This document shows positions 19,045 through 34,496 of a stretch of 36,957 bases of DNA, in pieces. The number at the start of each line of letters is the position of its first letter. Positions within the stretch are counted from its first letter, which is position 1. Source of the DNA: Eubacteriales bacterium (GTDB lineage: Bacteria > Bacillota > Clostridia > Oscillospirales > CAG-272); assembly GCA_045655025.1 (NCBI GenBank), contig JAZOOM010000065.1, positions 1-36,957 on the forward strand, written 5' to 3'. The position numbers and the translations under genes are program-made. The notes beneath the pieces are model-generated. The model had not been told where the DNA came from. It was given only the letters and a program-made list of their open reading frames with translations, and ran no database searches.

Positions 19045-19098
19045 AAAAGGAACTAAAACGGCGTTCGTTTTAGTTCCTTTTGGCGGAGATGGGGGAAT
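19045..19098. other. Hairpin plus second tRNA-Ser 3'-end-like att remnant
   Basis: AAAAGGAACTAAAACG...CGTTTTAGTTCCTTTT hairpin directly followed by TGGCGGAGATGGGGG; shares the TTCGTTTTA arm with the tRNA-proximal junction. Confidence 0.6.
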
Positions 19099-19479: not shown

Positions 19480-19887
19480 GAAAAATCAACAGATGTTATT
19501 GCTTTGTGGGATACAAGAGCAACATTGTGTTGTGTATCTGAAGATGTTGTCAAACAGTTGTCATTGATTCCAACAGGTAAGGTAAGGATGAGCACCCCAT
19601 CAAGTGCTTACAAACTGGTCGATACATATTTAGTCGATTTGTTATTACCCAATGATATGGTTCAAGATGTGGTGGTCGCTCACTCGGAAATTGGTGCACA
19701 AGGTATCGGTTTGTTGGTTGGTATGGATATTATCTCGCGTGGAGATTTTCTTATTACCAATAACAAGGAAACAGTTTTTTCTTTTAGAATGCCTCCCGAG
19801 CCATTAGCTGATTTCGTGACCGGAATAAATTTTCGTAATATTATAGGCACGCCTCATGGTCAAGGGAAAAGAGGCAACCGGAAATAA
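19480..19887 (+). pseudogene. 5'-truncated retropepsin-like aspartyl protease
   Basis: ALWDTRAT (DTGA motif mutated) and LLVGMDII; no start codon or RBS. Confidence 0.65.
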
Positions 19888-19904: not shown

Positions 19905-19939
19905 AAAAAAGAACTTTAGAAATTCTAAAGTTCTTTTTT
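19905..19939. terminator. Bidirectional terminator hairpin next to the island border
   Basis: AAAAAAGAACTTTAGA-AAT-TCTAAAGTTCTTTTTT. Confidence 0.7.
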
Positions 19940-20054
19940 ATTGGCGGAGGGTGTGAAACGTAAAACGAATCTTCTTAGTTGTTTTTTCAACGACCGCTTT
20001 ACTTCTAAGCAGAAAACCGCCTTGACTTTGCCGCAAAAAGTGGCTGTTTTGCAT

Positions 20055-20891
20055 TTAAATGCTTTCCTTTTTACAAATACACTGTCTCCATTCCGCAGAA
20101 TGCTCTTGAAGCTCGGTAATCGAACTGTATTGGAACCGTCTGAGGGCAGAACACGGAGAAATCGTGCCGTCACACGAAACGTAGAAAGTCGTGTTTCCCG
20201 CATCGCACTCTTTGGTGCGACACAGCTCGTAGAAACACCCCTCGGGGCAAAGGAAGTCCTGAGTTTCATCGACCCACCGTTGGATATTCTCCAATTGGGT
20301 TGGCGTTGGAATATCCGTTAATTCGCCGCGATAATTCGGCATTTTCCGCAGAATATGGATACGGTTCACCCCCCACGCCGCACACTGCTCCCGCAACCGA
20401 GGCAGGTCGTCCGCATTACTCTGCGAGGCCACCCAGTTGACCGAGCATCCGATCCCCTCGCTTTTCAACAAGTGTATCAGCTTCACGGTATCCTCATAAC
20501 CGTTTCTTGTTATTTGATGGATCTCTTTCGTGGACCCGTTCAGAGATGCATGGACCATAACGCCATTTTCTCGAAACAGAGACAGATGTTCCCGTCGAAA
20601 TCCCTTGCCCGATGTAGCAACGGTCGTGAATATCCCCCTGCGCGAGCAAAACGGGATCAGTTCGAAAAGTCCCGAATAGAGCAGTGGCTCGCCGCCAGTC
20701 AGCTGTACAAGCCCCGCTCTATTTCTCAGGAATCCATCAATGACGCGCTCTGCATAGGAAAGAGGTATATCCGTATGACCTCGCGTCACGTAGCATTGAG
20801 GGCAAAGATAGGGGCAAGCATCCGTGACTTGTATCACAAGGGTTCCACCATATTCCCTTTGATTCGTGTTCATAGATCGCGTATCAAACAT
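20055..20891 (-). CDS. Radical SAM protein with SPASM/twitch domain
   Basis: CPYLCPQC, TGGEPLL, C-terminal CDAG..FYVSCDGTISPC plus extra Cys; overlaps the DUF4176 stop by 8 nt. Confidence 0.9.
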   Translation of the reverse strand: MFDTRSMNTNQREYGGTLVIQVTDACPYLCPQCYVTRGHTDIPLSYAERVIDGFLRNRAGLVQLTGGEPLLYSGLFELIPFCSRRGIFTTVATSGKGFRREHLSLFRENGVMVHASLNGSTKEIHQITRNGYEDTVKLIHLLKSEGIGCSVNWVASQSNADDLPRLREQCAAWGVNRIHILRKMPNYRGELTDIPTPTQLENIQRWVDETQDFLCPEGCFYELCRTKECDAGNTTFYVSCDGTISPCSALRRFQYSSITELQEHSAEWRQCICKKESI

Positions 20892-21150
20892 CGTCCTGCT
20901 GCAAAAGGACTTCCTTCACAAAAGCCTCTTCTTCTGCACAGGTATAGCCGCGATAGACAACCTCTCGAATGTCCACATGATTGAAGAGAAAACGCTGATC
21001 GTCCGAAAGATGGCCTTCAGGATAGAAGCACGCGATATAGTCATATATCATCGCTTCGTTAGCAATGCGAACGCAACGTCCATAGATCATCAGGGGCTTT
21101 CTCCCGCCATTCAGTAAGACCACACTTCCAATCGGCAAATAGTCTTTCAT
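20884..21150 (-). CDS. DUF4176 protein (T7SS-associated)
   Basis: LPIGSVVLL..LMIYGR..YDYIACFYPEG..FNH.DI.EV..RGY..EE signature. Confidence 0.9.
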   Translation of the reverse strand: MKDYLPIGSVVLLNGGRKPLMIYGRCVRIANEAMIYDYIACFYPEGHLSDDQRFLFNHVDIREVVYRGYTCAEEEAFVKEVLLQQDDV

Positions 21151-21180
21151 ATCAAAACGACCTCTCTTTCGTAAAAATCT

Positions 21181-21900
21181 CTAAAGATTATAAATCAAAG
21201 ATACAACATACTGTGTACCGCCCCTGGCAATGGCAACATAGGAATCTGATCCCAAACCTTGCGCACACATATAAAGGGCATCTCCGACATCTTTAAAAAG
21301 CACATTGACTTCTCGGTTTCCTCTTATATCGCGTATGGAAGAGACAGCCTTTTGGCCTGGAGATTGGCTACGCATATTGGTTTGCCATTCCTGAAGCCAT
21401 GCAACCGGAATCCCATATTTTTTTTGAAGTTCCCCGAAATTTTCCGCGGATCCGGCACCGACGAGGAGCTTCCCCTCCTCAGAAGTTAGCTTCACAAAAA
21501 AGGAACCCAACACATGAGGTCGGAAGGTCAGCCCGTTCATCCGGCAGATCCATTCGTCGAGATTGTCCGCCTCGTTCATCACGTGCTGAATTTCAAAAAC
21601 GTCCCCAACCTTGCGGTAACACAGGAACGAATCGTAATTCACCAGCAATCCGACCTGCCGCCCCATAATGGTTCTGCTCATAACGTACAGAGCATCCTGC
21701 CAAGCGGTAAGGATACGGGAGACGGCGTATTCAAGTCGATATCCATTTGCGCAAGGGGTAATATACCCCTTGCGCAAAAGAGACTCAATGGCATCATCAT
21801 CCTTCCGCACCATTACGTCCACAGCCGGGAGGAGGGAGATGCTCGACAGGGACAGAAGCGTAGCCAGTTCTTTTTCAGTCAATTGGGAACGCATCGCCAT
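21181..21900 (-). CDS. Hypothetical protein, possible EspG/EsaE-like T7SS chaperone or immunity protein
   Basis: 239 aa, AAGGAG RBS; LTEKEL..LL and AIESLLRKGYI..YRL..V motif. Confidence 0.65.
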   Translation of the reverse strand: MAMRSQLTEKELATLLSLSSISLLPAVDVMVRKDDDAIESLLRKGYITPCANGYRLEYAVSRILTAWQDALYVMSRTIMGRQVGLLVNYDSFLCYRKVGDVFEIQHVMNEADNLDEWICRMNGLTFRPHVLGSFFVKLTSEEGKLLVGAGSAENFGELQKKYGIPVAWLQEWQTNMRSQSPGQKAVSSIRDIRGNREVNVLFKDVGDALYMCAQGLGSDSYVAIARGGTQYVVSLIYNL

Positions 21901-21906
21901 TCTCCT

Positions 21907-23313
21907 TTACCACTTCTTGATCCAGTTAACCACGGCGGCTCCAGCAGAAGCGACCGTATTCACGACTGCCTTGGTCTGCGCGACAGCCACGTTCAGCGCA
22001 GTCTCAATAGGTGCGGCAACAACCTTGGCGGCTCCCTCAACGAAGTCGCCGACGCTGGTCGGATTCGTCATCTTCTTGATGCCCGTCTTAACGCTCTCCG
22101 CGCCGGACTTCACGGCGTTCCCCACGTCCTTGACGCAGGTCTCGCCGATGGCCTTCATATCGACCTTACCCGTCTCGTATGCCGTCGATACGGATTCCGC
22201 CACCTGTTTGGCACCCTCTACAACGTTGGGAGCAACCGTCTCAGCGAGATCGTTCCACATCCAACTCACGCCTACGGAGACGGCAACGCCAATGGCAACA
22301 CCCGCAGCCGTGGCCGCAATGGCGCCGGCTCCTGCGGCAGCAATCGCCGTAACAGCGGCGGTCGATACAATTGCCGACGCAACACCGGCTGCAGTTTCAC
22401 GAGCGATGTTGTTGGCATACTCTCCACCCGTAATCGTGCCGTTCTTGAGATCCTGATAGCCTACCAACGCCTCAATTCCGCCTCCGAGGACACCGCCGAT
22501 GACACCCGCCTTTACATACGTGCCAACCTTAATATTCTTGGCAGCCTCGGCAGCTCTGGCGGCGCGCTCAGCTCCGGTAAGACCCTTCTCCCCAAAGAGA
22601 GTGGTCTTCAAAGTAGCTTTTTTGGCAACCTCCTGCGAGATGTGGGAATTTTGCACGTTAATTTTAACGCCATCATCCAGACTATCCACACCCTTCTTCA
22701 GAGGCTCATACATCTCCTTGCTGGTGATGATTTTCTCACAATGCGCGTAGTCCCCTTGTCCGACACGCACGACGATCTTCTGTGCGTAGCCTGCGCCTCC
22801 GGCCTTCACTTCGTTAAATGCCCCGTTAATGATCACGTCGGCACCAGTTTCGGTCAGACTTTCTCCAAGAGTAGCAACCCCCTTGGTAAAGGGATTGATA
22901 TTGTGCTGATTGCGCACCATGATCTCCAAGGCAGTACCAAAGGAGTTCTTGCCGGATCCCACACGTTGGAAAGTCTCCAAACCCACCAAGGTTCGTCCGA
23001 GATCCACGCCCAGCAATCCGCCGACAAGACCGGGGAGCGTGAACTGTCCCGTCTTGCCAAGGGTCTTTTGGATATGTTCGGCATTATCCACGTCCTGATC
23101 AACGAGGGTGCGCGGGATCTTGCCTGCGCAATCATTGGTGAGATCCGTCATGTCCTTCAGCGAGAGGCGGAGTTGTTTTGTTACGGATCGGGAACCGGAC
23201 ACAGTCACTTTTTCCATGACAGCGTGGACGTTTTCCAGGTGATCACACACCTGATTCATATGTTGAAGAAACAGCTTATATTCTTCCAGTTTGATTCCGG
23301 TGTTGGTGTCCAT
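21907..23313 (-). CDS. Putative T7SS effector: WXG/LXG-like N-terminus plus Gly/Ala-rich hydrophobic (pore-forming-like) C-terminus
   Basis: Helical N-terminal ~85 aa ending TLVDQDVDNAEHI; GVIGGVLGGG and AAVTAIAAAGAGAIAATAAGVAIGVAV segments; follows the WXG100 genes. Confidence 0.7.
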   Translation of the reverse strand: MDTNTGIKLEEYKLFLQHMNQVCDHLENVHAVMEKVTVSGSRSVTKQLRLSLKDMTDLTNDCAGKIPRTLVDQDVDNAEHIQKTLGKTGQFTLPGLVGGLLGVDLGRTLVGLETFQRVGSGKNSFGTALEIMVRNQHNINPFTKGVATLGESLTETGADVIINGAFNEVKAGGAGYAQKIVVRVGQGDYAHCEKIITSKEMYEPLKKGVDSLDDGVKINVQNSHISQEVAKKATLKTTLFGEKGLTGAERAARAAEAAKNIKVGTYVKAGVIGGVLGGGIEALVGYQDLKNGTITGGEYANNIARETAAGVASAIVSTAAVTAIAAAGAGAIAATAAGVAIGVAVSVGVSWMWNDLAETVAPNVVEGAKQVAESVSTAYETGKVDMKAIGETCVKDVGNAVKSGAESVKTGIKKMTNPTSVGDFVEGAAKVVAAPIETALNVAVAQTKAVVNTVASAGAAVVNWIKKW

Positions 23314-23371
23314 ATCTCTACCTCAAAAGGCCGCAGCCGATCGGCCGCGGCCTCTTTCCTTGAAATTTTGC

Positions 23372-23689
23372 TTACGCACTGGCGACGGCACTGAAATCCT
23401 TGATGATATGCGCCGCGTTTTCTTCGTCCTTGTACGTAATGGTATTCTTCGCAGCGAGCAAGGTCTGCGGATAGCTCTTGAGCAATTCGATCATGGGGTC
23501 GAAGAAGGAGCTCTTCAAGGCCTGGTAAACCTCTGCATACGCTTGCTCTGCGTGACCCTGCCAGATCTGATTCAGCTCGTCCATGCGCTCGCGGATATCC
23601 TCCATACCCGTGGAGAGAGACGACGAAACGGACTCAAGCTCCGAAATAGTGGCAGTAATCTGCTCTTCCGACATTAAAAGCTTATACAT
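23372..23689 (-). CDS. WXG100-family type VII secretion substrate
   Basis: 105 aa helix-turn-helix with central WQG (LNQIWQGHAEQAY). Confidence 0.88.
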   Translation of the reverse strand: MYKLLMSEEQITATISELESVSSSLSTGMEDIRERMDELNQIWQGHAEQAYAEVYQALKSSFFDPMIELLKSYPQTLLAAKNTITYKDEENAAHIIKDFSAVASA

Positions 23690-23716
23690 AGTGACTCTCC
23701 TTTCGTTTATTGGTCA

Positions 23717-24016
23717 TCAAATGAGATACCGAGTGCGGATATCCGAAGCCAAAGCCTCGTCCTGCTCAATCATTTCGGTGTAGGAACGGGTGATCTCCTT
23801 CGGCATCTCGGTCAGAAGATCAAGCAGGCGCTGATAGTCAGCCTTCTTCTCCTCGTGAACCAGCTGGAATGCCTCCTGAGTCTTGGAGAGGAAGCCCTCG
23901 TTCAGGGTCTTCATCGTGCTCTCCAACTGAGTCATGGCATTTGTCACCAGCAACTTGTTCTTCTCAAGGTCCTTGCAAATCTGTTCCAATGCGGTGGCGT
24001 CGTACACAGTGTTCAT
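23717..24016 (-). CDS. WXG100-like protein (degenerate turn motif FLS)
   Basis: 99 aa helical hairpin, LNEGFLSKTQEAF at the WxG position, C-terminal MIEQDEALA export-like motif. Confidence 0.72.
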   Translation of the reverse strand: MNTVYDATALEQICKDLEKNKLLVTNAMTQLESTMKTLNEGFLSKTQEAFQLVHEEKKADYQRLLDLLTEMPKEITRSYTEMIEQDEALASDIRTRYLI

Positions 24017-24213
24017 TCGTATATCCTCTCTTTCAAAATTATGATTTGATCAACATAGCTCTGAAGCATTTTGCGCTGGATGCGCAAAGCCTCCGATATC
24101 GTGTCAGCCGTTTCGCCAAAGAGGCTGTCCCAAAGAGCGATCTCCGCATGCTTGAGCTCATCAATCGCCATCTCCAGCTCTTTGTGACAAAAGGCCAAAT
24201 ATGTCTCGTTCAT
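24013..24213 (-). CDS. Small helical hypothetical protein (66 aa), possibly a truncated WXG-like protein
   Basis: AGGAGGAG RBS before ATG 24213; ATGA overlap with the next gene; own promoter. Confidence 0.6.
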   Translation of the reverse strand: MNETYLAFCHKELEMAIDELKHAEIALWDSLFGETADTISEALRIQRKMLQSYVDQIIILKERIYE

Positions 24214-24236
24214 AGCCTCTCCTCCTTTCTGACCAC

Positions 24237-24265
24237 ATTGTATCACAAAAAACGACATTTGTCAA
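24237..24265 (-). promoter_or_regulatory. Internal sigma-A promoter for the substrate genes
   Basis: TTGACA-N17-TACAAT with TG extended -10. Confidence 0.7.
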
Positions 24266-24305
24266 GAGGTTTTCCAAATGTTTTTGTCAAATTATTTTAC
24301 ATTGT

Positions 24306-24977
24306 TCAATTTCTCTTTAATTTTTGGATTCTATTGTCCAAAAAGTCCGAAAGGCACCGATCAATGTGCCGGCGATCGCCGCAACGGATGATCATATTTC
24401 CCTTGTCCGTGTCTCCCTGAAGCAGCCACGCGCCGCCGCCCCTTCTGGCAAACAGAACGCAAGCTCCGCCTTCGGCTCCCCCGTTTTCAAAGGTAAAGCG
24501 CACGAAGGGCTCCTCCTCCGAAAAGGAGAAATCCTTGGGTTCTTCATCCACGTAACAGCTGGACGCGCAGGTGCCCGCAGTGGGTACCTGTGCGGCCAGC
24601 TTCAAAAACGTACTCAAGGGAGACTCGCCCAGCTCGGCCAGCAGGAAATCGACGCGGTGGTCATCCGCGGTTCGGGTCACGATGACGTGATCCCCCTGCC
24701 CAAAAAACATGTAAACCGAGCTGTCGTGACTCTTGGCAGACGGACATTCGATCCCCACCGTGGCATCCGCATTGCTGATGATCTTCACAACGTCCGCCAC
24801 GGGATCGGACAGCCGGTACTGCTGATCCTTGGTGGGAACGATGATCCGCTTGGATCTGAGCGAACACAGAACCTCCTCGGTAAGCGCCTCGCCGTCCCGA
24901 ATATTCTTTACCAAGCTATCCCATTCCAAGCCGCTCATGCTCACGGCAATCGGATATTTCGTATCAATAACGTTCAT
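24306..24977 (-). CDS. Hypothetical protein, possible EspG/EsaE-like T7SS accessory
   Basis: 223 aa, AGGAGG RBS; VLCSLRSKRII..QYRLSDPV motif resembles 21181-21900. Confidence 0.65.
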   Translation of the reverse strand: MNVIDTKYPIAVSMSGLEWDSLVKNIRDGEALTEEVLCSLRSKRIIVPTKDQQYRLSDPVADVVKIISNADATVGIECPSAKSHDSSVYMFFGQGDHVIVTRTADDHRVDFLLAELGESPLSTFLKLAAQVPTAGTCASSCYVDEEPKDFSFSEEEPFVRFTFENGGAEGGACVLFARRGGGAWLLQGDTDKGNMIIRCGDRRHIDRCLSDFLDNRIQKLKRN

Positions 24978-25002
24978 ATTGTCCTCCTATACGGTTACTT
25001 TT

Positions 25003-28000
25003 TTAGTTGTCCCGATACAGCTTCGTCAATCTTGGGCCGCGCGGATCATAGAGATATCCGTAGCCGTCGGGAATACTGCGATGTGAAAGCCCCGAAACAC
25101 CCCAGCGATCCTTGGTGGTTCCTCCCAAGGCCAAGCCGTGGTTGTAGTTCAGAATACCGGGAGTAATCGAGGCTACGGTTCCCTTATCCAACAATGCGTT
25201 CGCGGAATCGGACAGGATAAAGCGTACTCGGTTATAGTTGTAAATGGAAGCGCTTGATGCAGCCTGTGAGCCCAGCACCGTCAAAATCTTTTTGCTCGCG
25301 TCACTGGCGAGGGAACGCAACATGGCAAAATTACACAGGAAAATAAAGGTATAGCCGTCACCCGTTTTGTCGTACGTATCAACCGCTTTGATACCGTCAT
25401 CCAATTCGGCGGCACCGTAGACAGAAATGTTCATGCTCGAATCCGCAAGATTCTCAAAGGGATTGTCTTGCATCAGCGGATCGACCACAATGATCTGTCG
25501 CACGTCAAAGTTCTTTTGCCTGAGAAGATAGCGAACCATCCGGTGCATAACGGTCGAATCATCGTCACCGGACACAACGAAGAACGGGGACTCGTTGAAA
25601 TGGTATCCAACAGGGGCAAAGGGATAATCCCCGTCAATGCCCACAGGAATCAGATCGTGACAGTACTCCACATCCCGGAAGGTGACCGTATCTGGGATCT
25701 GCTCGATCCGGATGAGATTCTTGATCCCGCGAACGGTCGGAACGATCTGATGAACCTTGCTCTTCAGCTCCTGATCGGACATTGTATCACCGATATGTCC
25801 CGGAAGCGCGATGGCGAACGCCTGCGTTTCCTTCGCGTAGGATCCTCGCCGGTAAAACAACATCCGACCGGGGGTGGCAACGGGAGCCTTAATGTCCCGA
25901 AGCGGGAAATAATGCTCATAGGGATCATTATCTAGCTTGAATGACATCCATGTCGTAATAGACTGACGATACGTCAACGGCAAAACACTGACCGTAGCCG
26001 TAGAAAAAACGAAGTGGACGCCCAGCGCGAAGGAGTTCTTGCTGATTATCATCAACCTGTTCGCAAGAGTCGGCATTTCCTCATAAAGGGTATCCAAACC
26101 ATCGATCATAATCACAAGCCTCGGATGGTTTAGCGAAACCTTCCTTCTGTACTCGATCTCGCGCTGCAGACGGGGAACCAAACGCTCCAAAAGCTCGTTG
26201 TCCTCGAAGGTGATTGTGTGCACAACGTTGGGAACCTGCTCAAAGGCGCGGTAGTCACTATCCTTGAGCCCGAACGAGCAGACCCAGAACTGCAATTCGT
26301 CTGTCGTATAGAGCCAGCTTCCCATGAACAGCATGCTTTGTAGCAGCGTGGTCTTTCCCATGCCGGGATTGCCGCAAACCACGACGTTACCTTGATGCAG
26401 GGAGACCTCAGCACGTTCCATTTTCGCCGCGTAGATGTTATCGCTCATACCGATTGGGATGGTCACATTGGGATACGGACATTTCGCCCTTTTGATTCCG
26501 GGCAATAGACTCCATATCATCTCATCAGGAAGCGGAGTCTCAAACACAAGCTTGGCATTGGCGTGCTTTTGATCCTTGGCCGCCTGCTTGATAGCGGCTA
26601 CCAGCGCCTCCATTTGGGTTACGGCAGGAGAATCTGTGCAGAGCACGTCTCCCCCGTAGGGCGTTTGAAACTCCACCAAACCATCCCGATCCGTCAACAA
26701 ATACCCGCGGCCTCTTTGATCGGGCTTGATATACGCCGCATCGGGCTGATCAATGATCGCCCTGGAAATGGAATCGTCACGCACCTTAAAGCAAATATCG
26801 TAACCGATGTTTGCCGCGATCTGACCTCCGATCTGAGGCGCTGGATTTTGGGCGGAAAGAAGCAGATAAATACCTCGAGAGCGTCCCTGTCTGGCAATGC
26901 AGGCGATATTATCCAGGAAGGAGCTATCGCTCTGCTTAGCATCCACGAACTCATCAACAATGACCAGCAGATAGGGCATGGCCTCCAGTGCCGTCTTGTC
27001 TTGACAGTACTTTTCCTGATAGTACTCAATCTCGTTGACCGCAATGAGTCCATCCTCCTTGGCCTTGTTTAACAGCTTCTGTCTTCGTTTGCTTTCGGCC
27101 TCCAGCATGATCAATACGCGCTTCAGCTGATAAGAGCCGTCCAGATCGGACAAAGCCCCTGCGAAGTGAGGAAGGTCCTTGAGTTGCATAGAGCTTGCAT
27201 CTCCCTTAAAGTCGATGATTGCAAAGGAGAAAAGATCCGGACTGTACTTCGTGCAGAGCAGGGCAACCATGGAAAGAAGGAACTGAGACTTACCGCTTCC
27301 CGTCATACCGGCAACGATACCGTGACCGCGGCAACCGGTAAAATCAATACTGACGATTCCGCCGGCCCCTTGCCCGATGGGCACGCTCAATCCGGCCCCC
27401 TTGCACTGCTTCCAAGCACCTGAAATGCGTGAAACGGCGGCAGAAAACGCGAACGTGAGATTCATGAACTGGAAGAGCGAAAGCTTATCGGGAAGCTGTC
27501 CACCTCTCGCCAGCAAACCGCCTCGGTCTGCGTATTGAGCAAGCAAGGGAAACAGTTGCTGAGGAATGGCCTCCTTATGCAGCCATTCGGGAACCATCTC
27601 CACGCTCCTTGCAAAGGGGAATGTCAGCTCTGCCTTCGATATAGACTCGGCATGAATGTTGCATTCGCTGAAAACGGGTGCGTAATTCACATGGCAAACG
27701 AGCAGGCATACACGGGCGGAAGCATCACAGATGACTCTGTATAGCTGATCCAACTCGGCGTTGGACAAATCCAGGCTCTGAATCAATAGGAATTGCGCGG
27801 GCGGTACCATTCGTATCCGTTCCATTGCATCCTGAGCATTCCCATAGGATACGGAGGGCGGGGGCGGAACAGGCATTCCGTTTCTCCCGTTGCCGCACAG
27901 CATGACATGAACACGCTCGGGCGCATATGCCGCCAACAGTTCGCCCACAATCCCATTCGCAACAGACTCAGCCTGCTGACCCGTTACCGAAATGCAACGG

Positions 28001-28650
28001 TATTCGTCGCAGTTCAAAAGTAGCGGCATCAACTTGATAGTCTGACTTTTCTTAATCCTGTTCAGAACATCCTCTGCCAGAGGATGATTCGACAGGTCAT
28101 TCCCGGGGATAATACCCGCAGGATTGGGTGCGTTGCGAACCGAACCGACTCGCACCGTGATATGGTCATCGTTTGTCCTCTCTCCCATCCATTCGGATCG
28201 CCAAATATGGGAGAACAACGATGTATAGTCCTTGGGAGGATAGGCGCAGTTGATCCGCCTTGCGTAATCCTCTCCTTCCGCCTCGGCTTGGGCGATCGCC
28301 TTACTCAGCTTTTTGTTGAACTCCTCGGTCATTGCCCGATTCTTTTTTGCGTTCTGATGCTTCGAATAAAAGAATTCAATCACCGAACAGATGAGAGAAG
28401 AGATCATGCCCAAGGCCATAAAGGCAATCATGTAACCCATATGAAATCCTTGACCGGGCATGATGATGGTAAAGAGAAGATAGATACCGCCTCCTAAAAC
28501 GGCAAGCTGTATGCTGGGAAACAGGACCGTCTTGAGCCAGGAAAATTTGGATTGAGTGTGAAGACCGGGCAATTCCGGCATGGTAACCGCGGCAGGGGAA
28601 GTTATATCCCGAGCACGAAAGGCAGGAATAAAGAATTCTTTTTTCATCAT
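25003..28650 (-). CDS. essC: Type VII secretion FtsK/SpoIIIE ATPase (EssC/EccC-like), without FHA domains
   Basis: 2 N-terminal TMs; D1 HGIVAGMTGSGKS, IIDFKG, VIVDEF, ARQGRSRGIYLLLSAQ; D2 GNPGMGKTT, IMIDG; degenerate D3; start 28650 or 28647. Confidence 0.88.
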   Translation of the reverse strand: MMKKEFFIPAFRARDITSPAAVTMPELPGLHTQSKFSWLKTVLFPSIQLAVLGGGIYLLFTIIMPGQGFHMGYMIAFMALGMISSLICSVIEFFYSKHQNAKKNRAMTEEFNKKLSKAIAQAEAEGEDYARRINCAYPPKDYTSLFSHIWRSEWMGERTNDDHITVRVGSVRNAPNPAGIIPGNDLSNHPLAEDVLNRIKKSQTIKLMPLLLNCDEYRCISVTGQQAESVANGIVGELLAAYAPERVHVMLCGNGRNGMPVPPPPSVSYGNAQDAMERIRMVPPAQFLLIQSLDLSNAELDQLYRVICDASARVCLLVCHVNYAPVFSECNIHAESISKAELTFPFARSVEMVPEWLHKEAIPQQLFPLLAQYADRGGLLARGGQLPDKLSLFQFMNLTFAFSAAVSRISGAWKQCKGAGLSVPIGQGAGGIVSIDFTGCRGHGIVAGMTGSGKSQFLLSMVALLCTKYSPDLFSFAIIDFKGDASSMQLKDLPHFAGALSDLDGSYQLKRVLIMLEAESKRRQKLLNKAKEDGLIAVNEIEYYQEKYCQDKTALEAMPYLLVIVDEFVDAKQSDSSFLDNIACIARQGRSRGIYLLLSAQNPAPQIGGQIAANIGYDICFKVRDDSISRAIIDQPDAAYIKPDQRGRGYLLTDRDGLVEFQTPYGGDVLCTDSPAVTQMEALVAAIKQAAKDQKHANAKLVFETPLPDEMIWSLLPGIKRAKCPYPNVTIPIGMSDNIYAAKMERAEVSLHQGNVVVCGNPGMGKTTLLQSMLFMGSWLYTTDELQFWVCSFGLKDSDYRAFEQVPNVVHTITFEDNELLERLVPRLQREIEYRRKVSLNHPRLVIMIDGLDTLYEEMPTLANRLMIISKNSFALGVHFVFSTATVSVLPLTYRQSITTWMSFKLDNDPYEHYFPLRDIKAPVATPGRMLFYRRGSYAKETQAFAIALPGHIGDTMSDQELKSKVHQIVPTVRGIKNLIRIEQIPDTVTFRDVEYCHDLIPVGIDGDYPFAPVGYHFNESPFFVVSGDDDSTVMHRMVRYLLRQKNFDVRQIIVVDPLMQDNPFENLADSSMNISVYGAAELDDGIKAVDTYDKTGDGYTFIFLCNFAMLRSLASDASKKILTVLGSQAASSASIYNYNRVRFILSDSANALLDKGTVASITPGILNYNHGLALGGTTKDRWGVSGLSHRSIPDGYGYLYDPRGPRLTKLYRDN

Positions 28651-28783
28651 GACTCCTTATAGATTCAGCGTCGATACATTAATTAAAAACAACCTTACCC
28701 TTCAGCCACTCTTGCTTCTTTCGAAAAGCGTCTTTACGGCAAACGTCCGCGTACAGCGGTTATCGCTTTCCCGGGCAAAATCC

Positions 28784-30100
28784 TCACACCCGTGTTTTTA
28801 GATTGCCGGACGTGATCCTTCGCCCAAGATCTTCTGCCTGAGCTAAGCAAATACGTAAGTTCTTCAAGGTACGGTCTTGCTTACTTTCGATATATTCGTG
28901 GTATAGTGTTCGGATTTTGGTGTAGACTGCTCCTTCCTTTTTCTTAAGTTTTCGCTTTTCTTTGACTTCGACATGTGCCAGATATCGGCAAAACCCGAAA
29001 ATCCGTTCAAACAGCTCCTTTCGAATCTCCGGGTCTACTGTCATATCCCACGGGAAGTCATTATTATATCGCAAGATTGCCTGTTTCATGACAGGATCGT
29101 CATTGAGCATCGACTGCCAGTAATTTTCAGGAAATAGCTGCTGAGCTTCTTCCTCGACAACGTTGTTTGTTTGGCCTCTGTTTGCCGTTTTCGGTGTATC
29201 GTCTATCTCATCACTTCCCTCAACTGCCTTTTCCGGAACAGCAACGACGTCTGATATGGATCGTCTTCCATACAAAGAACAATCTTCAAGCGGATTACGG
29301 TCATCGGCCATCAGACGAGGCTTGGAGTCTCCCCGCCAAAGAAGGGCGATAGAAACGTCGTCAGGGCCGCACCGTCCTAGATCAGCCACCTTGTCCGCGA
29401 AAGCCTTTTCCGACATGGTTGCCTCCTTGAGCCAATTAACAAAGGCAGGCTCCATATGCTTCTGATCCTTTTGGAAGAGCTGAGGCTTCGACACCTCCGG
29501 GCCGTCGCTCATGAGCACGATGCCCCGCAGATCCTTTACCTGGTAGCGCTTAAAGGAGAAATGCTTGAACGCGGGATTCACTAACACCTCTATGCTGGGC
29601 GTGGCGGCTCCCGGAATACTGGAGGGCGAAACGACCCCGAAACCATTCCCCGTATCAGCGGCAATGATACCGTTACCGACCTTCGCGGTGATCAGGATAT
29701 CGTCCTTTACTGCGCACGCGACCAGCGTTGTGCTGTAAGGGCATTTGCGCAGGAAATCGACGTGATAGTAATTGGTGTTTTCCCGAAAAACGGGCGGCAT
29801 GCCGTTTTTGCTCGCATACTTGTCCAAATTTTTCGAATAGTATTCGTAGACGTACGTGTAGAATATATTGCGCAACTGATCCTCCGGTGCCTCGGCAATC
29901 TCGTCGAATTTTTCGACCAAGAAGCGGGTTGCCATTATGACTGCCATTCGGGCACCGATTCCTGCGTATTTCCCTGCTTGTGTCACACCGTCTCCAACGG
30001 CAAGAGCGTATACGCCCTTGTCCGCGCGGCCATGCGCTGCGTCTTGATTTTTGCCTTCAGAACCGGGTGCCGCATAGAAAAACATCGTATATTGATCCAT
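28784..30100 (-). CDS. PP2C-like protein phosphatase (YegK/TerY-P type) with helical C-terminal extension
   Basis: NQDA, LAVGDGV, STTL, VGNG, LMSDG, DDVSI motifs. Confidence 0.85.
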   Translation of the reverse strand: MDQYTMFFYAAPGSEGKNQDAAHGRADKGVYALAVGDGVTQAGKYAGIGARMAVIMATRFLVEKFDEIAEAPEDQLRNIFYTYVYEYYSKNLDKYASKNGMPPVFRENTNYYHVDFLRKCPYSTTLVACAVKDDILITAKVGNGIIAADTGNGFGVVSPSSIPGAATPSIEVLVNPAFKHFSFKRYQVKDLRGIVLMSDGPEVSKPQLFQKDQKHMEPAFVNWLKEATMSEKAFADKVADLGRCGPDDVSIALLWRGDSKPRLMADDRNPLEDCSLYGRRSISDVVAVPEKAVEGSDEIDDTPKTANRGQTNNVVEEEAQQLFPENYWQSMLNDDPVMKQAILRYNNDFPWDMTVDPEIRKELFERIFGFCRYLAHVEVKEKRKLKKKEGAVYTKIRTLYHEYIESKQDRTLKNLRICLAQAEDLGRRITSGNLKTRV

Positions 30101-30392
30101 TTATGTCTACCTTTCTATGTGTCCGCACTCCCTGAGGAATGCGGTATTTTCTTTTTTATCTGTCTGTTGTCTGCAAAGATGGTTAAACGCGAGATGGAAT
30201 TTCATTTCCGATCCCGCGTTTCCGTTTGATTGCCTCAGTGACCAGCGAGACTCTTCTGATTCCCCTTTGCGATCGAATAGCAGTGTCCGTAAAATCGTGT
30301 TACGTCACGGTCGTATGGCCATTCATGGGAAACGCAACACGACCGAACCCACTTCCTAAAAAAGGCGGAACATAGCCCCACATCCAAATGAG

Positions 30393-31298
30393 TTACTGAT
30401 CCGGGAACAATTTGTTCCAAAAATCTTCGTCATCCTCCTCCGAATATGCTTCGTCGTCTTCGTGGAACACTTCCAACAGCCTCTCAGGGGGAGCCTCTTC
30501 TCCGCATGCAGATGTCTCCTCCAGCAGGGTAACATCAACACCTCCGTCGTCGATAACATATTGCACGGAAGCGACGTACACCTCGATGATGGAATTCAGC
30601 AGCTCGTTAACAGACTTTTCGCTATCCCCGCGGAAATCGACTCCATCCAAGGCCTGCCGTTCATCCCGGGAAACGCTCCCCAACGGGACAACGTATGTAT
30701 ACTGTTTTTTTGCTTCATTCATCTGGTAGGTGTAGAGCTCGGCCATTTCCCTGAATAATTCCGTGCCGCTATATTCCTCGCCATCGATCATGTAACGTCC
30801 GGAATCGTTTTCGCCCAGATCCGAGATCAATACAACGATCGGCTGAGAATACCCAAATCCCAAACTCTTGTAGTGCTCCTTGCGCGCCACTCCATACATG
30901 TAGGCATACAGCATGGCTTCGCCCAAGGGAGTCGTTCCAGAACACTCTCTGATAACAGGGGGGGCATGCTCCACCAAGTCAAACTCTCGCTGGAATTCCA
31001 CGCCGGTTTCGTTGTCATTGTTCTTGCCAAAGACGATCACGGACAAATCAACGAGCTTTTCCAGTTCGAGGCTCGAATTCCGCGCGTGGATGGTTTCGTA
31101 CAAGTAGGACAGCGAGCTGTTGATCTGATCGCGGTCACTGCTCAGAGAACCGCTTCCGTCCACCAAAAAAATCAAAGGAGTACGAAAGGTCGCTCCACGG
31201 GGGTCCAGCGTCTTCAGCTTCGGGATCTTCACGTCCACGTAACACTTCTTCTTGGGATCGTACCTCTTAACATCATTAAATCTCTGAATCGACTTCAT
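30393..31298 (-). CDS. TerY/YegL-like vWA domain protein
   Basis: MIDAS FLVDGSGS, GTTPLGEA, RKEHYKSLGFGYSQPIVVLISD; GGAGG RBS before ATG 31298; acidic tail. Confidence 0.87.
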   Translation of the reverse strand: MKSIQRFNDVKRYDPKKKCYVDVKIPKLKTLDPRGATFRTPLIFLVDGSGSLSSDRDQINSSLSYLYETIHARNSSLELEKLVDLSVIVFGKNNDNETGVEFQREFDLVEHAPPVIRECSGTTPLGEAMLYAYMYGVARKEHYKSLGFGYSQPIVVLISDLGENDSGRYMIDGEEYSGTELFREMAELYTYQMNEAKKQYTYVVPLGSVSRDERQALDGVDFRGDSEKSVNELLNSIIEVYVASVQYVIDDGGVDVTLLEETSACGEEAPPERLLEVFHEDDEAYSEEDDEDFWNKLFPDQ

Positions 31299-31327
31299 AT
31301 GAACCTCCTGTATATTAAAAAATGAAA

Positions 31328-32503
31328 TCAATGAAACAGCTGCCAAAGTCCAAGCAGAATTAAGGCCGCTGCAGCCACAAAACCCAAAGACAAAACGATC
31401 CATGCCCAAGTGCTTCTGCCGTCTTTCAGTTGAGTATTTTGCACTTCGGAAATCTTCGTTCCGGGAGTCTTTGTTCCGGGGTCTCGCTTAGAGCCGACGT
31501 TTTCGGCATCGGGATCCTCAAGGAACTGTTTCTTTCCTTCATCGTAAGGCTTGTCAGGAAGATACATCAATCCGTCCAAATGGCTACTATATCGACAATA
31601 GGAAAAAAACATCGTCATCCATGCTTTAGGGGTGGGAAGGGATGCGTGCGGGGTGGTCAGCAAAGCTACGAAGGTGTCTCTCATACAGCGGGGCAGGATA
31701 TACCACGCAGGATAAAAGCGGCGTTTTTTGAGGTTTCGAATAGCGCGCATAGAGCCCTTCGCAAACAAATCGTATTCTTCGCCGGTTTCCTCCAGATCGT
31801 ATTCGCGTATACGCGCAAGATCCGAACGCAAGCTTTCCGTGCCCGTCAGGATTTGCAAAAGCATCATGGCCAAACCGTAGTTCTCGCTTTCCTCATCCGG
31901 TACGAATCCGGGCTCGATGCTGTCTCTGTTGGAGTACTCCGGGCGCGGCGGCTGAGAGTAGCTGCCACGAACCGAAAAGCCGTCCAGATCAATCGGATAA
32001 ACAAGCCCTTTTTGGGTTACAAAAAAATTATCCGGCTTCACGTCGCTCACCATCAGCTCATGTTGGTGCAGTTGATCGAAGCACGTGCACAGGGAATGAC
32101 AAACACGGAGCATCTTACGATAGGTATCCTCGCCAAACCATTCGTCGCAGTTCGTTTGAATGATGAGATGGTTCAGGGAACGATCGTCCGAGCAATCCCT
32201 CATGATAAAGCCACACCATGCGCTTTCGCTCCTGCTTGCATCGCTATACACGCAATCCATCGGGAAGGCCTTAGCCAGATACTTCAGATTACTACTCTGC
32301 TCAAGCTTCCGGCGGATATCCATCAAGCCATCGACCTTTGTCCTGTTTTCGGGCGTATTGGCCATGAATTTTACCAGAAGGTTGGAAGGGCTGTCAACCT
32401 TGTGAATCGCTTGCCTTTGAGAATTCCCCATGCCTCTGTCACTTTCATCCCGAACCGTATAAGTCAGCTCACCCATACGACAAAACACTGATTTTTGCAA
32501 CAT
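31328..32503 (-). CDS. YegI-like Ser/Thr protein kinase with C-terminal TM anchor
   Basis: GMG loop, LLVKF, LH..ELMVSDVKPDNFFV, IDLDG, RPEY; terminal TM helix; ATG 32503 behind AGGAGG (alternative GTG 32509). Confidence 0.85.
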   Translation of the reverse strand: MLQKSVFCRMGELTYTVRDESDRGMGNSQRQAIHKVDSPSNLLVKFMANTPENRTKVDGLMDIRRKLEQSSNLKYLAKAFPMDCVYSDASRSESAWCGFIMRDCSDDRSLNHLIIQTNCDEWFGEDTYRKMLRVCHSLCTCFDQLHQHELMVSDVKPDNFFVTQKGLVYPIDLDGFSVRGSYSQPPRPEYSNRDSIEPGFVPDEESENYGLAMMLLQILTGTESLRSDLARIREYDLEETGEEYDLFAKGSMRAIRNLKKRRFYPAWYILPRCMRDTFVALLTTPHASLPTPKAWMTMFFSYCRYSSHLDGLMYLPDKPYDEGKKQFLEDPDAENVGSKRDPGTKTPGTKISEVQNTQLKDGRSTWAWIVLSLGFVAAAALILLGLWQLFH

Positions 32504-32542
32504 CTTCACCTCCTAACGAACTAAATAACACCAAATTATAAT

Positions 32543-33466
32543 TTAATCAAAGAGCTTTTCGAAGGTTATCTCATCCTGCTCGACCACATCATTCCATTCG
32601 CTTAGCAGGAATAGCCTTTGAACATCGTTCAATTCGGCCACATTGATCAGCATCCCACTCGTTGTAACCAGAACAGGGATCATATTCGTGCAGTTCAGCA
32701 ATGAATCTATATTGTTGCTGATGAAATAATTCTTTTTGCTTTCTATCGGCGCACCCCCATTTGGGACACAATCACAAGCAGCCTCTATGAACTCGTTTGG
32801 CTCTCTCTGAACAGAGGTCACCGTTATCCTGCCGCATTCCTTTAGATTGACCATCTCCTGCACAAACCGTCTAATCTCAACAGATCGGGTCAAGTCTTCA
32901 TTGCGAATCTGCTCGCTGAGGTAAAAATTCACCGGAGCTCCGTTCATTTTTTTGAGCCGATAACCCAAAGCCAGCAGACGCCTGCGAGTTTTATCTGCGT
33001 CCGCATCCTTGCGGAAAGAAAGCAAATCCAAAAAGACGTTTCCGTCTCGAAGTGTCTCTGTTTTCACAATGATCTGCTCTAATTCTCCATTCACAAGGAT
33101 GCTCCGTTTTCTCAACAAAGCCTCCGTTAAGGTTGTAGCCGGGGGCAGTTTTTCACCCAAAATATAATCCAGATAATCGGATTCAAAAATCATGAAATTC
33201 TGACTATACAGAACCTCCTTGACAGCCGGATCATTGGTGGCATAATAGTCATAGAGCGCAGCCATAGAGAGAATGTTCGTAAACCGATACTCCCCCTTTA
33301 CATTTTCGGTGCTGCTCAAGTTTTGGTTTTCCATGTTGCTCAACGTCTGTCTGGTAATTCCTAATGCCTTTGAAATATCTTCCTGAGATTTTCCCAGGCC
33401 GCTACGTATCTTGCCGATCTTTTCGACAAAATCTTCAATAAATAGTTGTTGTGTAATTGTTGACAT
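32543..33466 (-). CDS. XRE-family HTH protein with large uncharacterised C-terminal domain
   Basis: IRSGLGKSQEDISKALGITRQTLSNMEN; AGGAGG RBS. Confidence 0.8.
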   Translation of the reverse strand: MSTITQQLFIEDFVEKIGKIRSGLGKSQEDISKALGITRQTLSNMENQNLSSTENVKGEYRFTNILSMAALYDYYATNDPAVKEVLYSQNFMIFESDYLDYILGEKLPPATTLTEALLRKRSILVNGELEQIIVKTETLRDGNVFLDLLSFRKDADADKTRRRLLALGYRLKKMNGAPVNFYLSEQIRNEDLTRSVEIRRFVQEMVNLKECGRITVTSVQREPNEFIEAACDCVPNGGAPIESKKNYFISNNIDSLLNCTNMIPVLVTTSGMLINVAELNDVQRLFLLSEWNDVVEQDEITFEKLFD

Positions 33467-33484
33467 AACTTACCTCCTAATTGC

Positions 33485-33513
33485 ATTATATCACAAAAAA
33501 CATCATTTGTCAA
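33485..33513 (-). promoter_or_regulatory. Sigma-A promoter heading the island operon
   Basis: TTGACA-N17-TATAAT with TG extended -10. Confidence 0.75.
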
Positions 33514-33895
33514 TACAATTGTACGTTTTTTTTACACAGAATCAAAAACAATTACTGTCAGATATTCTGTCGATGCGTAATTTTCAATATAGTCATGTAA
33601 GCGCGGGTTGATTAAATAGTTGGTTCCATTTTAATATATAATGATCACATAATTGTCGCGTGATCTTCAGTGGGACTCCAATACAGGAACCGATCGCACT
33701 TTATGCGTCGAAAGGGGAGGAAACAATCCACAATGTTATCTCTATTATACCACTTTTTATAGCTATATACGGGATGACTATATTATACAAGACCAGCTAT
33801 TTGGAATCCATATGATGCCCTCTGCGGCCTGATCACATATAACGTCTACGTCCCGACTTGAAATGATCACCAACTCTCGGTAATATCGGCTTACA

Positions 33896-34206: not shown

Positions 34207-34295
34207 TGGCGGAGGGAAAGGGATTCGAACCCTTGTGGGCGGGTGCCCAAACGGTTTTCAAGACCGCCTCGTTATGACCACTTCGATATCCCTCC
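34207..34295 (-). tRNA. tRNA-Ser(TGA)
   Basis: GGAGGGA acceptor, GCGGT-CTTGAAA-ACCGT anticodon arm, long variable arm, GGTTCGAATCC, GCCA end; 89 nt. Confidence 0.96.
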
Positions 34296-34445: not shown

Positions 34446-34486
34446 TTTTCAAGACAGCCTCGTTATGACCGCTTCGATATGCCTCC
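34446..34486 (-). pseudogene. Duplicated 5' half of tRNA-Ser(TGA), ending at the anticodon loop
   Basis: 38/41 identical to 34255-34295. Confidence 0.8.
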
Positions 34487-34496
34487 GTACTCGGAT

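Follow-up and report, generated by a model that had tools for sequence, protein, structure and literature searches.

A radical SAM enzyme closing a type VII secretion substrate operon, predicted to act on the C-terminus of an effector

To our knowledge, effectors of type VII secretion systems (T7SS) are regarded as unmodified polypeptides that are helped by chaperones. Among radical SAM enzymes, SuiB makes Lys-Trp cross-links, and the proteusin and epipeptide epimerases epimerize peptide residues. MftC is described as carrying out the oxidative decarboxylation of a C-terminal Tyr (PMC11350588; PMC10288494), with a requirement for an RRE chaperone and two auxiliary clusters (PMC11350588). The epimerase EpeE is reported to have two clusters (PMC8326336), and a four-Cys AuxI layout has been described for anSME (PMC5491770). 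On the secretion side, the DUF4176 family is presented as a family of toxin-specific T7SSb chaperones (PMC12478183), and in B. subtilis the gene for YfjC is described as lying directly after that of the predicted pore-former YfjB (PMC10765036).

The window, by which we mean the whole stretch of 36,957 nucleotides that was analysed, comes from a Eubacteriales bacterium (Oscillospirales; CAG-272). On its minus strand, genes for HTH, kinase-like, vWA-like and PP2C proteins, EssC and a 223-aa protein are followed by a second strong promoter, and then by genes for a 66-aa protein, two WXG100 proteins, a 468-aa protein, a 239-aa protein, a DUF4176 protein and a radical SAM enzyme, after which comes a terminator (Table 1). 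A first-pass annotation of this DNA had placed the enzyme at the end of a T7SS substrate operon, which is indeed where it lies, as the last gene of the minus-strand run before a terminator-like hairpin. The locus unites an EssC-like ATPase, WXG100 proteins and DUF4176, the combination by which we recognized a T7SSb module, with EssC scoring below the TIGR03928 cut-off. Its T7 core (25003-33466) looks minimal, with essC and the kinase-like, vWA-like and PP2C genes; no match to EsaA, EssA, EssB or YukD was found among the island genes scanned. PP2C and kinase genes are likewise present, downstream of the radical SAM gene, in two related loci, L022 and L131. The two island promoters (24236-24265 and 33484-33513) share a 30-nt sequence that is 90% identical, a candidate operator of the island's XRE regulator. 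Stacked insertions are suggested by another tRNA-3'-end-like remnant at 19045-19091, which has a hairpin close to 19082, and by a partial, degenerate tRNA-Ser copy at 34446-34489; a weak retropepsin-like ORF (19504-19887, plus strand) is situated between tRNA remnants.

Table 1. Features of the type VII island and its borders (positions in the window)
Feature	Position	Strand	Evidence or remark
Terminator-like hairpin, 16-bp stem, after the enzyme gene	19905-19939	-	ends the minus-strand run
10-nt copy of the tRNA-Ser 3' end, other island boundary	19942-19951	-	sequence match
278-aa radical SAM enzyme with an auxiliary domain of twitch type	20055..20891	-	PF04055
DUF4176 protein, 88 aa	20884..21150	-	E 5e-27
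Predicted EspG/DUF5081/YfjC-like effector chaperone, 239 aa	21181..21900	-	language-model look-alikes 0.92-0.95, lead only
Predicted T7 effector, 468 aa, proposed substrate	21907..23313	-	position, hydrophobic segment, neighbours
WXG100 protein, 105 aa	23372..23689	-	PF06013, E 3e-8
WXG100-like protein, 99 aa	23717..24016	-	PF06013, E 9e-6, slightly below cut-off
66-aa protein, opens the substrate operon, 4-nt overlap with next gene	24013..24213	-	no family match
Sigma-70-like promoter (11/12, extended -10) of the substrate operon	24237..24265	-	sequence match
223-aa protein, no known family	24306..24977	-	profile searches
EssC/EccC-like FtsK ATPase, 1215 aa	25003..28650	-	TIGR03928, 314 bits, below cut-off
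PP2C phosphatase gene	28784-30100	-	profile match
vWA-like gene	30393-31298	-	profile match
Kinase-like gene	31328-32509	-	profile match
XRE-family HTH gene	32543-33466	-	profile match
Promoter, perfect consensus, ahead of the XRE-family HTH gene	33485-33513	-	sequence match
tRNA-Ser(TGA), predicted island integration site	34207..34295	-	tRNA prediction

From its position, its hydrophobic segment and its chaperone-like neighbours, we infer that the 468-aa protein is a T7 effector. The segment, at about residues 307-352, resembles a Gly/Ala zipper, and the protein ends in an amphipathic, Ala/Val/Thr-rich tail closed by Trp (codon at 21910-21912). Searches of Pfam and NCBIfam gave no match for this protein, LXG domain included, and its only close homologue, 94% identical, is likewise Trp-ended; no immunity gene for it was identified. 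The adjacent 239-aa protein has weak homologues at the equivalent position in L022 and L131. As the first-pass annotation had remarked, no small precursor-like gene can be recognized in the operon, the products of its short genes having Glu, Ile, Ala and Val as their last residues.

The 278-aa enzyme belongs to the radical SAM superfamily by both motif and predicted fold. Its ORF matches Radical_SAM PF04055 (E 3e-16; 60 bits against a cut-off of 29.5) and carries CxxxCxxC as C26/C30/C33, and its AlphaFold model (pLDDT 93) matches radical SAM structures, with SuiB and SkfB as the top Foldseek folds (E 3e-15 and 6e-15, 17-21% identity) and anSME also found, the three together spanning 16-21% identity. 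In comparisons made with the family profile, PqqE (E 3e-33) and SuiB score best. The earlier designation as a radical SAM/SPASM enzyme is correct in its first half only, as the SPASM profile PF13186 gives 17.9 bits against a cut-off of 21.5. We reserved the name SPASM for enzymes with seven to eight auxiliary Cys, including a CxxC-x5-C-x2-3-C motif (two auxiliary clusters), and twitch for those with three to four conserved auxiliary Cys around a beta-hairpin (one auxiliary cluster). That motif is absent from all six T7-linked copies of the enzyme; of the 12 linked to Nif11, 10 have it and two are cut or broken. According to the alignment, the window's enzyme keeps four auxiliary cysteines (C219, C229, C247 and the C-terminal Cys), which match the AuxI layout of anSME; the four are kept in 6/6 T7-linked copies, making these twitch-type with a predicted cluster content. 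The enzymes of L098 and L085 are likewise short in this comparison.

No N-terminal RRE was found in the 278-aa enzyme. Among the best 25 of its 44 matches to curated NCBIfam maturase families none reaches the cut-off (best, 63.5 against 625 bits), and MftC (TIGR03962) gives 48.7 bits where 265 are needed. The enzyme falls outside all curated maturase families and is predicted, by analogy, to work like MftC. The 8-nt overlap with the DUF4176 gene that had been reported is obtained if ATG 20891 is the start, and an in-frame ATG 18 nt further on (20873) would leave a 10-nt gap; since no clear Shine-Dalgarno site precedes either ATG, the extent of the overlap is uncertain. In L022, L023 (4 nt) and L131 the two genes again overlap or abut.

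The enzyme is part of an uncurated family, in which the profile still gives 250 bits at the 150th listed cluster (50% identity), that is, at least 150 clusters, and 86 of 100 homologues bear the signature SLNGS-x8-R-x22-NWV-x4-N-x2-D. Genomic contexts were drawn from 37 metagenome loci and 63 GTDB loci. The 82 classified loci comprise 35 that are CLI_3235-like, 18 with an unknown 380-aa protein, 12 of the Nif11/NHLP type, five T7SS loci and 12 that are unclear. CLI_3235-like is our own label for loci with a second radical SAM gene, an ACP-like gene, an S8/TIGR04066-like protein and ABC exporters, the members tested falling below curated cut-offs. Together with L131, which was found later, the T7SS loci number six in about 85 examined (the window, L022, L023, L027, L086 and L131), L026 being left out of the T7 counts as a near-duplicate of L027. 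The T7 share of the family is probably underestimated, since the motif used for GTDB misses several T7-linked members (L022, L023, L027 and L131). The first-pass annotation had made its idea depend on homologues not occurring without T7 genes, and on this point the survey went against it. The loci of the non-T7 homologues are mostly RiPP clusters and themselves point to the substrate, and the suggested link between RiPP-like maturation and type VII export is borne out to the extent that an enzyme of a RiPP-maturase-like family recurs in six T7SS loci. The enzyme is the sole gene cluster common to the T7 and Nif11 loci. No family members were found in viral contigs (by motif pattern) or in plasmids (at E 1e-15), and a search of 401 Lachnospiraceae-family genomes gave no further T7-linked locus.

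The nearest GTDB relative (L085, 40% identity) is an orphan enzyme, with no T7 gene or recognizable Trp-ended partner nearby; the genome around it yielded neither a WXG100 match nor any EssC above the cut-off. Its gene (L085:9329-10516) belongs to a unit of two genes driven by a strong promoter of its own, and the 90-aa ORF upstream matches nothing in the loci that were retrieved. The 18-locus subclade (L061, L066, L067, L069 and 14 others), which spans Bacillota, Bacteroidota and other phyla, has N-terminally extended enzymes about 400 aa long that lack C219, carry Thr as residue 92 and are invariably paired with the 380-aa protein; the small-precursor candidates considered for it proved to be antisense shadows, and no conserved precursor was found. 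Other members carry a fused N-terminal domain of 150-300 aa (L087:8789-10669, L174, P0114, P0119, P0121, P0130, P0143 and P0159), for which no Pfam, NCBIfam or PDB match was found and which, by eye, we take to recall LynF/TruF-type prenyltransferases. Some fused members also bear UPF0489, NUDIX or DUF7005 domains, and the fused enzymes of L087 and L174 adjoin Trp-ended Nif11 precursors.

The precursors beside the enzyme share their last residue. In 11 of the 12 Nif11/NHLP loci they are Trp-ended (10 within 6 kb; that of L087 lies farther off), the exception being L112, whose precursor ends in Phe. The cores of these precursors are otherwise unrelated. L084 and L174 are two additional loci with Trp-ended precursors; in L084 the core is made of Gly and Ser, and its sole aromatic residue is the final Trp. 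In L076 the precursor adjoining the enzyme is Trp-ended and three others, beside different radical SAM enzymes, are not. Among complete Nif11 precursors unpaired with the enzyme, 3/14 end in Trp, a control in which wide flanks were checked for 11 regions and 1.5-kb flanks only for three precursors. The CLI_3235-like loci yielded 48 small peptides in 36 of 43 loci, of which 37 end in Cys, 10 in Trp and one in Glu. These peptides are Lys-rich and 26-60 aa long, in clusters with the ACP-like gene, the S8/TIGR04066-like protein and two radical SAM enzymes (L024-L119); the three that were tested matched no NCBIfam model, and the peptides look like undescribed lipidated or cross-linked RiPPs. In these clusters the second radical SAM enzyme could equally read the terminal residue. 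The N-termini of the enzyme's partner substrates differ completely, and C-terminal recognition is the simplest reading because the partners share the last residue and not a leader.

The same ending is found in the T7 loci. In all six that bear the enzyme, the large effector-like protein encoded upstream has at its C-terminus an amphipathic helix, rich in Ala/Val/Gly/Thr, and a last Trp. Where T7 loci lack the enzyme, only 3/14 effectors defined by profile are Trp-ended (Fisher p 0.002; 0.011 if four lineages are counted; for a T7-linked sample of six loci from about four lineages). One further Trp-ended effector without the enzyme, L143, came from a hand-picked list and stands outside the 14 controls. 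In the genome of the window, 15/1530 long ORFs end in Trp. Part of the Trp signal is a property of the protein classes, since Trp ends exceed the genome background in both control sets, effectors and Nif11 precursors. A strict tail motif separates the paired effectors from the controls (6/6 against 0/14); it was drawn after viewing the positives and hence is not evidence. L131 turned up after the prediction of a Trp end had been recorded, and its effector, about 50% identical to that of L022, is Trp-ended. This locus has the gene order of the window (WXG100s, effector, 239-aa chaperone, DUF4176, radical SAM), and a comparison of the two effectors gave no significant match (best E 0.21); simple inheritance therefore does not account for the Trp end that they have in common.

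Some RiPP precursor tails closely resemble those of the T7 effectors. Because the T7 effectors and the family's RiPP precursors end alike, the likely substrate in the window is the C-terminus of the 468-aa protein, and the sequence comparisons indicate that the effector tail is probably what the enzyme acts on. The first-pass annotation had proposed a modified T7 substrate and named the 66-aa protein, a WXG100 or the effector; a T7 substrate still appears the likely target, and the Trp end favours the effector among the three. A small T7 protein, 66-aa or WXG100, would be peptide-sized and shares operon and promoter with the enzyme. None in the window ends in Trp or Cys, nor do any of 21 in L022, L023, L027 and L086, and when genes of the window were matched to these four loci the 66-aa protein found no counterpart. 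Such a substrate is very improbable.

Enzyme and end residue also co-segregate. All Cys-paired enzymes form one clade (support 97), with every Trp-paired enzyme outside it, in a tree of 51 rows from which four fragmentary or duplicate Cys-paired rows were omitted; the Trp/Cys switch is a single change on this tree. Residue 92 is Ala or Ser in 27/27 Trp-paired enzymes (Ala in L174 and in that of the window) and Phe, Tyr, Ile or Val in 26/26 Cys-paired ones, and column 92 gives the best size separation among 270 alignment columns. It lies two residues before a conserved Ser-Gly on strand beta-3, a place from which we infer that it faces the active-site pocket. A small residue here would fit a pocket with room for indole; the switch happened once in evolution, and columns 19, 65, 181 and 185 also separate the two groups. 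T7-linked enzymes fall into three supported clades, one of the window's relatives, one inside the Nif11 clade and one with Trp-paired CLI_3235-like enzymes; that of L086 groups with three Trp-paired enzymes. Repeated recruitment into T7 loci is suggested only, because a single origin of the T7-linked enzymes is compatible with the AU test (p 0.09 for their monophyly, in a group that includes five close relatives without T7 context).

The gene could also be a passenger or a relic, captured by a mobile T7SS island and either idle on T7 substrates or active on an unlinked peptide or small molecule, with Trp-ended amphipathic tails being merely common among these effectors. The gene lies in an island flanked by tRNA sequence, a search of 28 genomes of the same genus gave no orthologue (best E 2e-15), and a survey of DUF4176 regions elsewhere (drawn from 40 of the 42 genomes with a match, many regions being cut by contig ends) met the enzyme in 1/40, namely L131. 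The loss of the second auxiliary cluster motif from all T7-linked copies, the orphan state of L085 and the similar amphipathic tails of control effectors are consistent with this reading as well. However, the window's copy keeps all seven cluster cysteines and the family signature, and in 6/6 T7 loci, from three separately supported clades, the gene closes the run of effector and chaperone genes or adjoins its end. In addition, one 13.8-kb contig of a related strain aligns with 19953-33532 at about 90% identity, enzyme included, and the Trp end is much rarer in control effectors than in paired ones. We consider a passenger unlikely. The pairing of the enzyme with a T7SS effector module is real, conserved and apparently undescribed: in the literature searched, which took in few subscription journals, we met no report of T7SS effectors being modified by a radical SAM enzyme, or of this Trp/Cys-terminal family.

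As to the reaction, the chances seem nearly balanced that the enzyme modifies the C-terminal Trp of the 468-aa predicted effector before export by oxidative decarboxylation. The enzyme would recognize the last residue of its substrate, abstract a hydrogen at the Trp C-beta and oxidize the product via the auxiliary 4Fe-4S cluster, and CO2 loss would leave a vinyl-indole enamide (-46.005 Da), as modelled on MftC and its C-terminal Tyr. In the Cys-paired clade an equivalent reaction would give an enethiol, and this sequence of steps is proposed because it is one reaction suiting both Trp and Cys ends. The modification might serve to take the terminal negative charge off a membrane-active helix or to cap it against carboxypeptidases, and in the cytoplasm, the site where an oxygen-sensitive enzyme would act, the DUF4176 protein and its EspG-like neighbour would serve the effector as chaperones. 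What the sequences themselves show is the family to which the enzyme belongs, its place in the operon, the amphipathic tail with its final Trp, and the co-segregation of enzyme clade with end residue; decarboxylation is a best guess, chosen purely by analogy. Complex prediction with the enzyme, effector residues 429-468, SAM and two clusters scored 0.01 and is counted neither for nor against this reading.

Docking on the terminal Trp could instead precede other chemistry, such as a cross-link to an upstream side chain, cleavage to an amide, or epimerization of Ala, Val, Thr or Ile in the tail. SuiB and SkfB, the top folds, and PqqE and SuiB, the top profiles, speak for such chemistry, as do the paired effector tails, which are 55-61% Ala/Val/Gly/Thr (6/6) against at most 52% in the 14 controls, and the description of epimerases as leader-independent and active on Val and Ile (PMC8326336). 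Cross-linking is difficult to reconcile with the precursors, which do not share a conserved partner residue at any constant spacing from the Trp. For epimerization an extra catalytic Cys is described as necessary (PMC8326336), but the family has only seven conserved Cys positions, all assignable as cluster ligands (by alignment, not structure), which leaves no non-ligand Cys as hydrogen-atom donor; moreover, Gly/Ser-only and Pro/Gln-rich cores offer few sites, and EpeE scores 38 bits against the family profile where PqqE scores 118. Taken together, these other chemistries appear rather unlikely.

More broadly, decarboxylation of the terminal Trp would make clostridial T7SS exporters of matured toxins, a picture that we advance tentatively. 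A radical SAM enzyme that reads RiPP C-termini would have been recruited, possibly three times, trimmed each time to one auxiliary cluster, and would cap the effector Trp, so that the same modified tail leaves the cell either as a small peptide via a type I exporter or on an effector of 350-650 aa via the T7SS; the family would then decarboxylate C-terminal Trp and Cys anaerobically and without flavin. If true, this would join RiPP chemistry to protein secretion and set a new requirement for effector activity in gut anaerobes, and a leader-independent editor of protein C-termini would be a useful tool. The comparison yields a testable substrate rule, in which the last residue, Trp or Cys, is tracked by enzyme clade and residue 92.

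Among described systems, the epimerases PoyD, OspD and EpeE resemble the proposed activity in their leader-independent action on Ala/Val-rich, membrane-active peptides, as described for them (PMC8326336); unlike them, the enzyme family has no spare conserved Cys and shows weak profile similarity, and what its partners have in common is the last residue, not the composition. SuiB/StrB, SkfB and PqqE are the nearest solved folds or profiles and have the auxiliary-cysteine layout in common with the enzyme, but its partners lack KxxxW or any other fixed motif and the enzyme has no RRE. MftC, whose radical SAM chemistry is directed at the aromatic residue that ends a ribosomal peptide (PMC11350588), is the working model. 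However, the island inventory of the window includes no MftA gene (a Val-Tyr-ended precursor), no MftB gene and no RRE partner, and the family's partners end in Trp or Cys instead of Val-Tyr; unlike what MftC requires, the window's enzyme has one predicted auxiliary cluster and not two, and its proposed substrate is a protein of 468 aa.

Nif11/NHLP clusters with an NHLM exporter (TIGR03793/03794/03796-03798) contain other family members and Trp-ended precursors, the tails of which can resemble that of the effector. The island of the window has WXG100s, chaperones and EssC in place of a Nif11/NHLP leader and a type I exporter, and its enzyme is shortened, with auxiliary cysteines reduced from eight to four. 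T7SSb modules with DUF4176 (Ltc) and EsaE/YfjC chaperones, whose effectors include TelE, TspA and YfjB, differ in that no radical SAM gene surfaced for them in those parts of the literature available to us, and the effector of the window has no Pfam LXG match. The window nevertheless has, as they do, a WXG100 pair together with DUF4176, and, like the modules of membrane-active T7SSb effectors, it combines a glycine-zipper-like effector segment with an EspG-like gene directly downstream.
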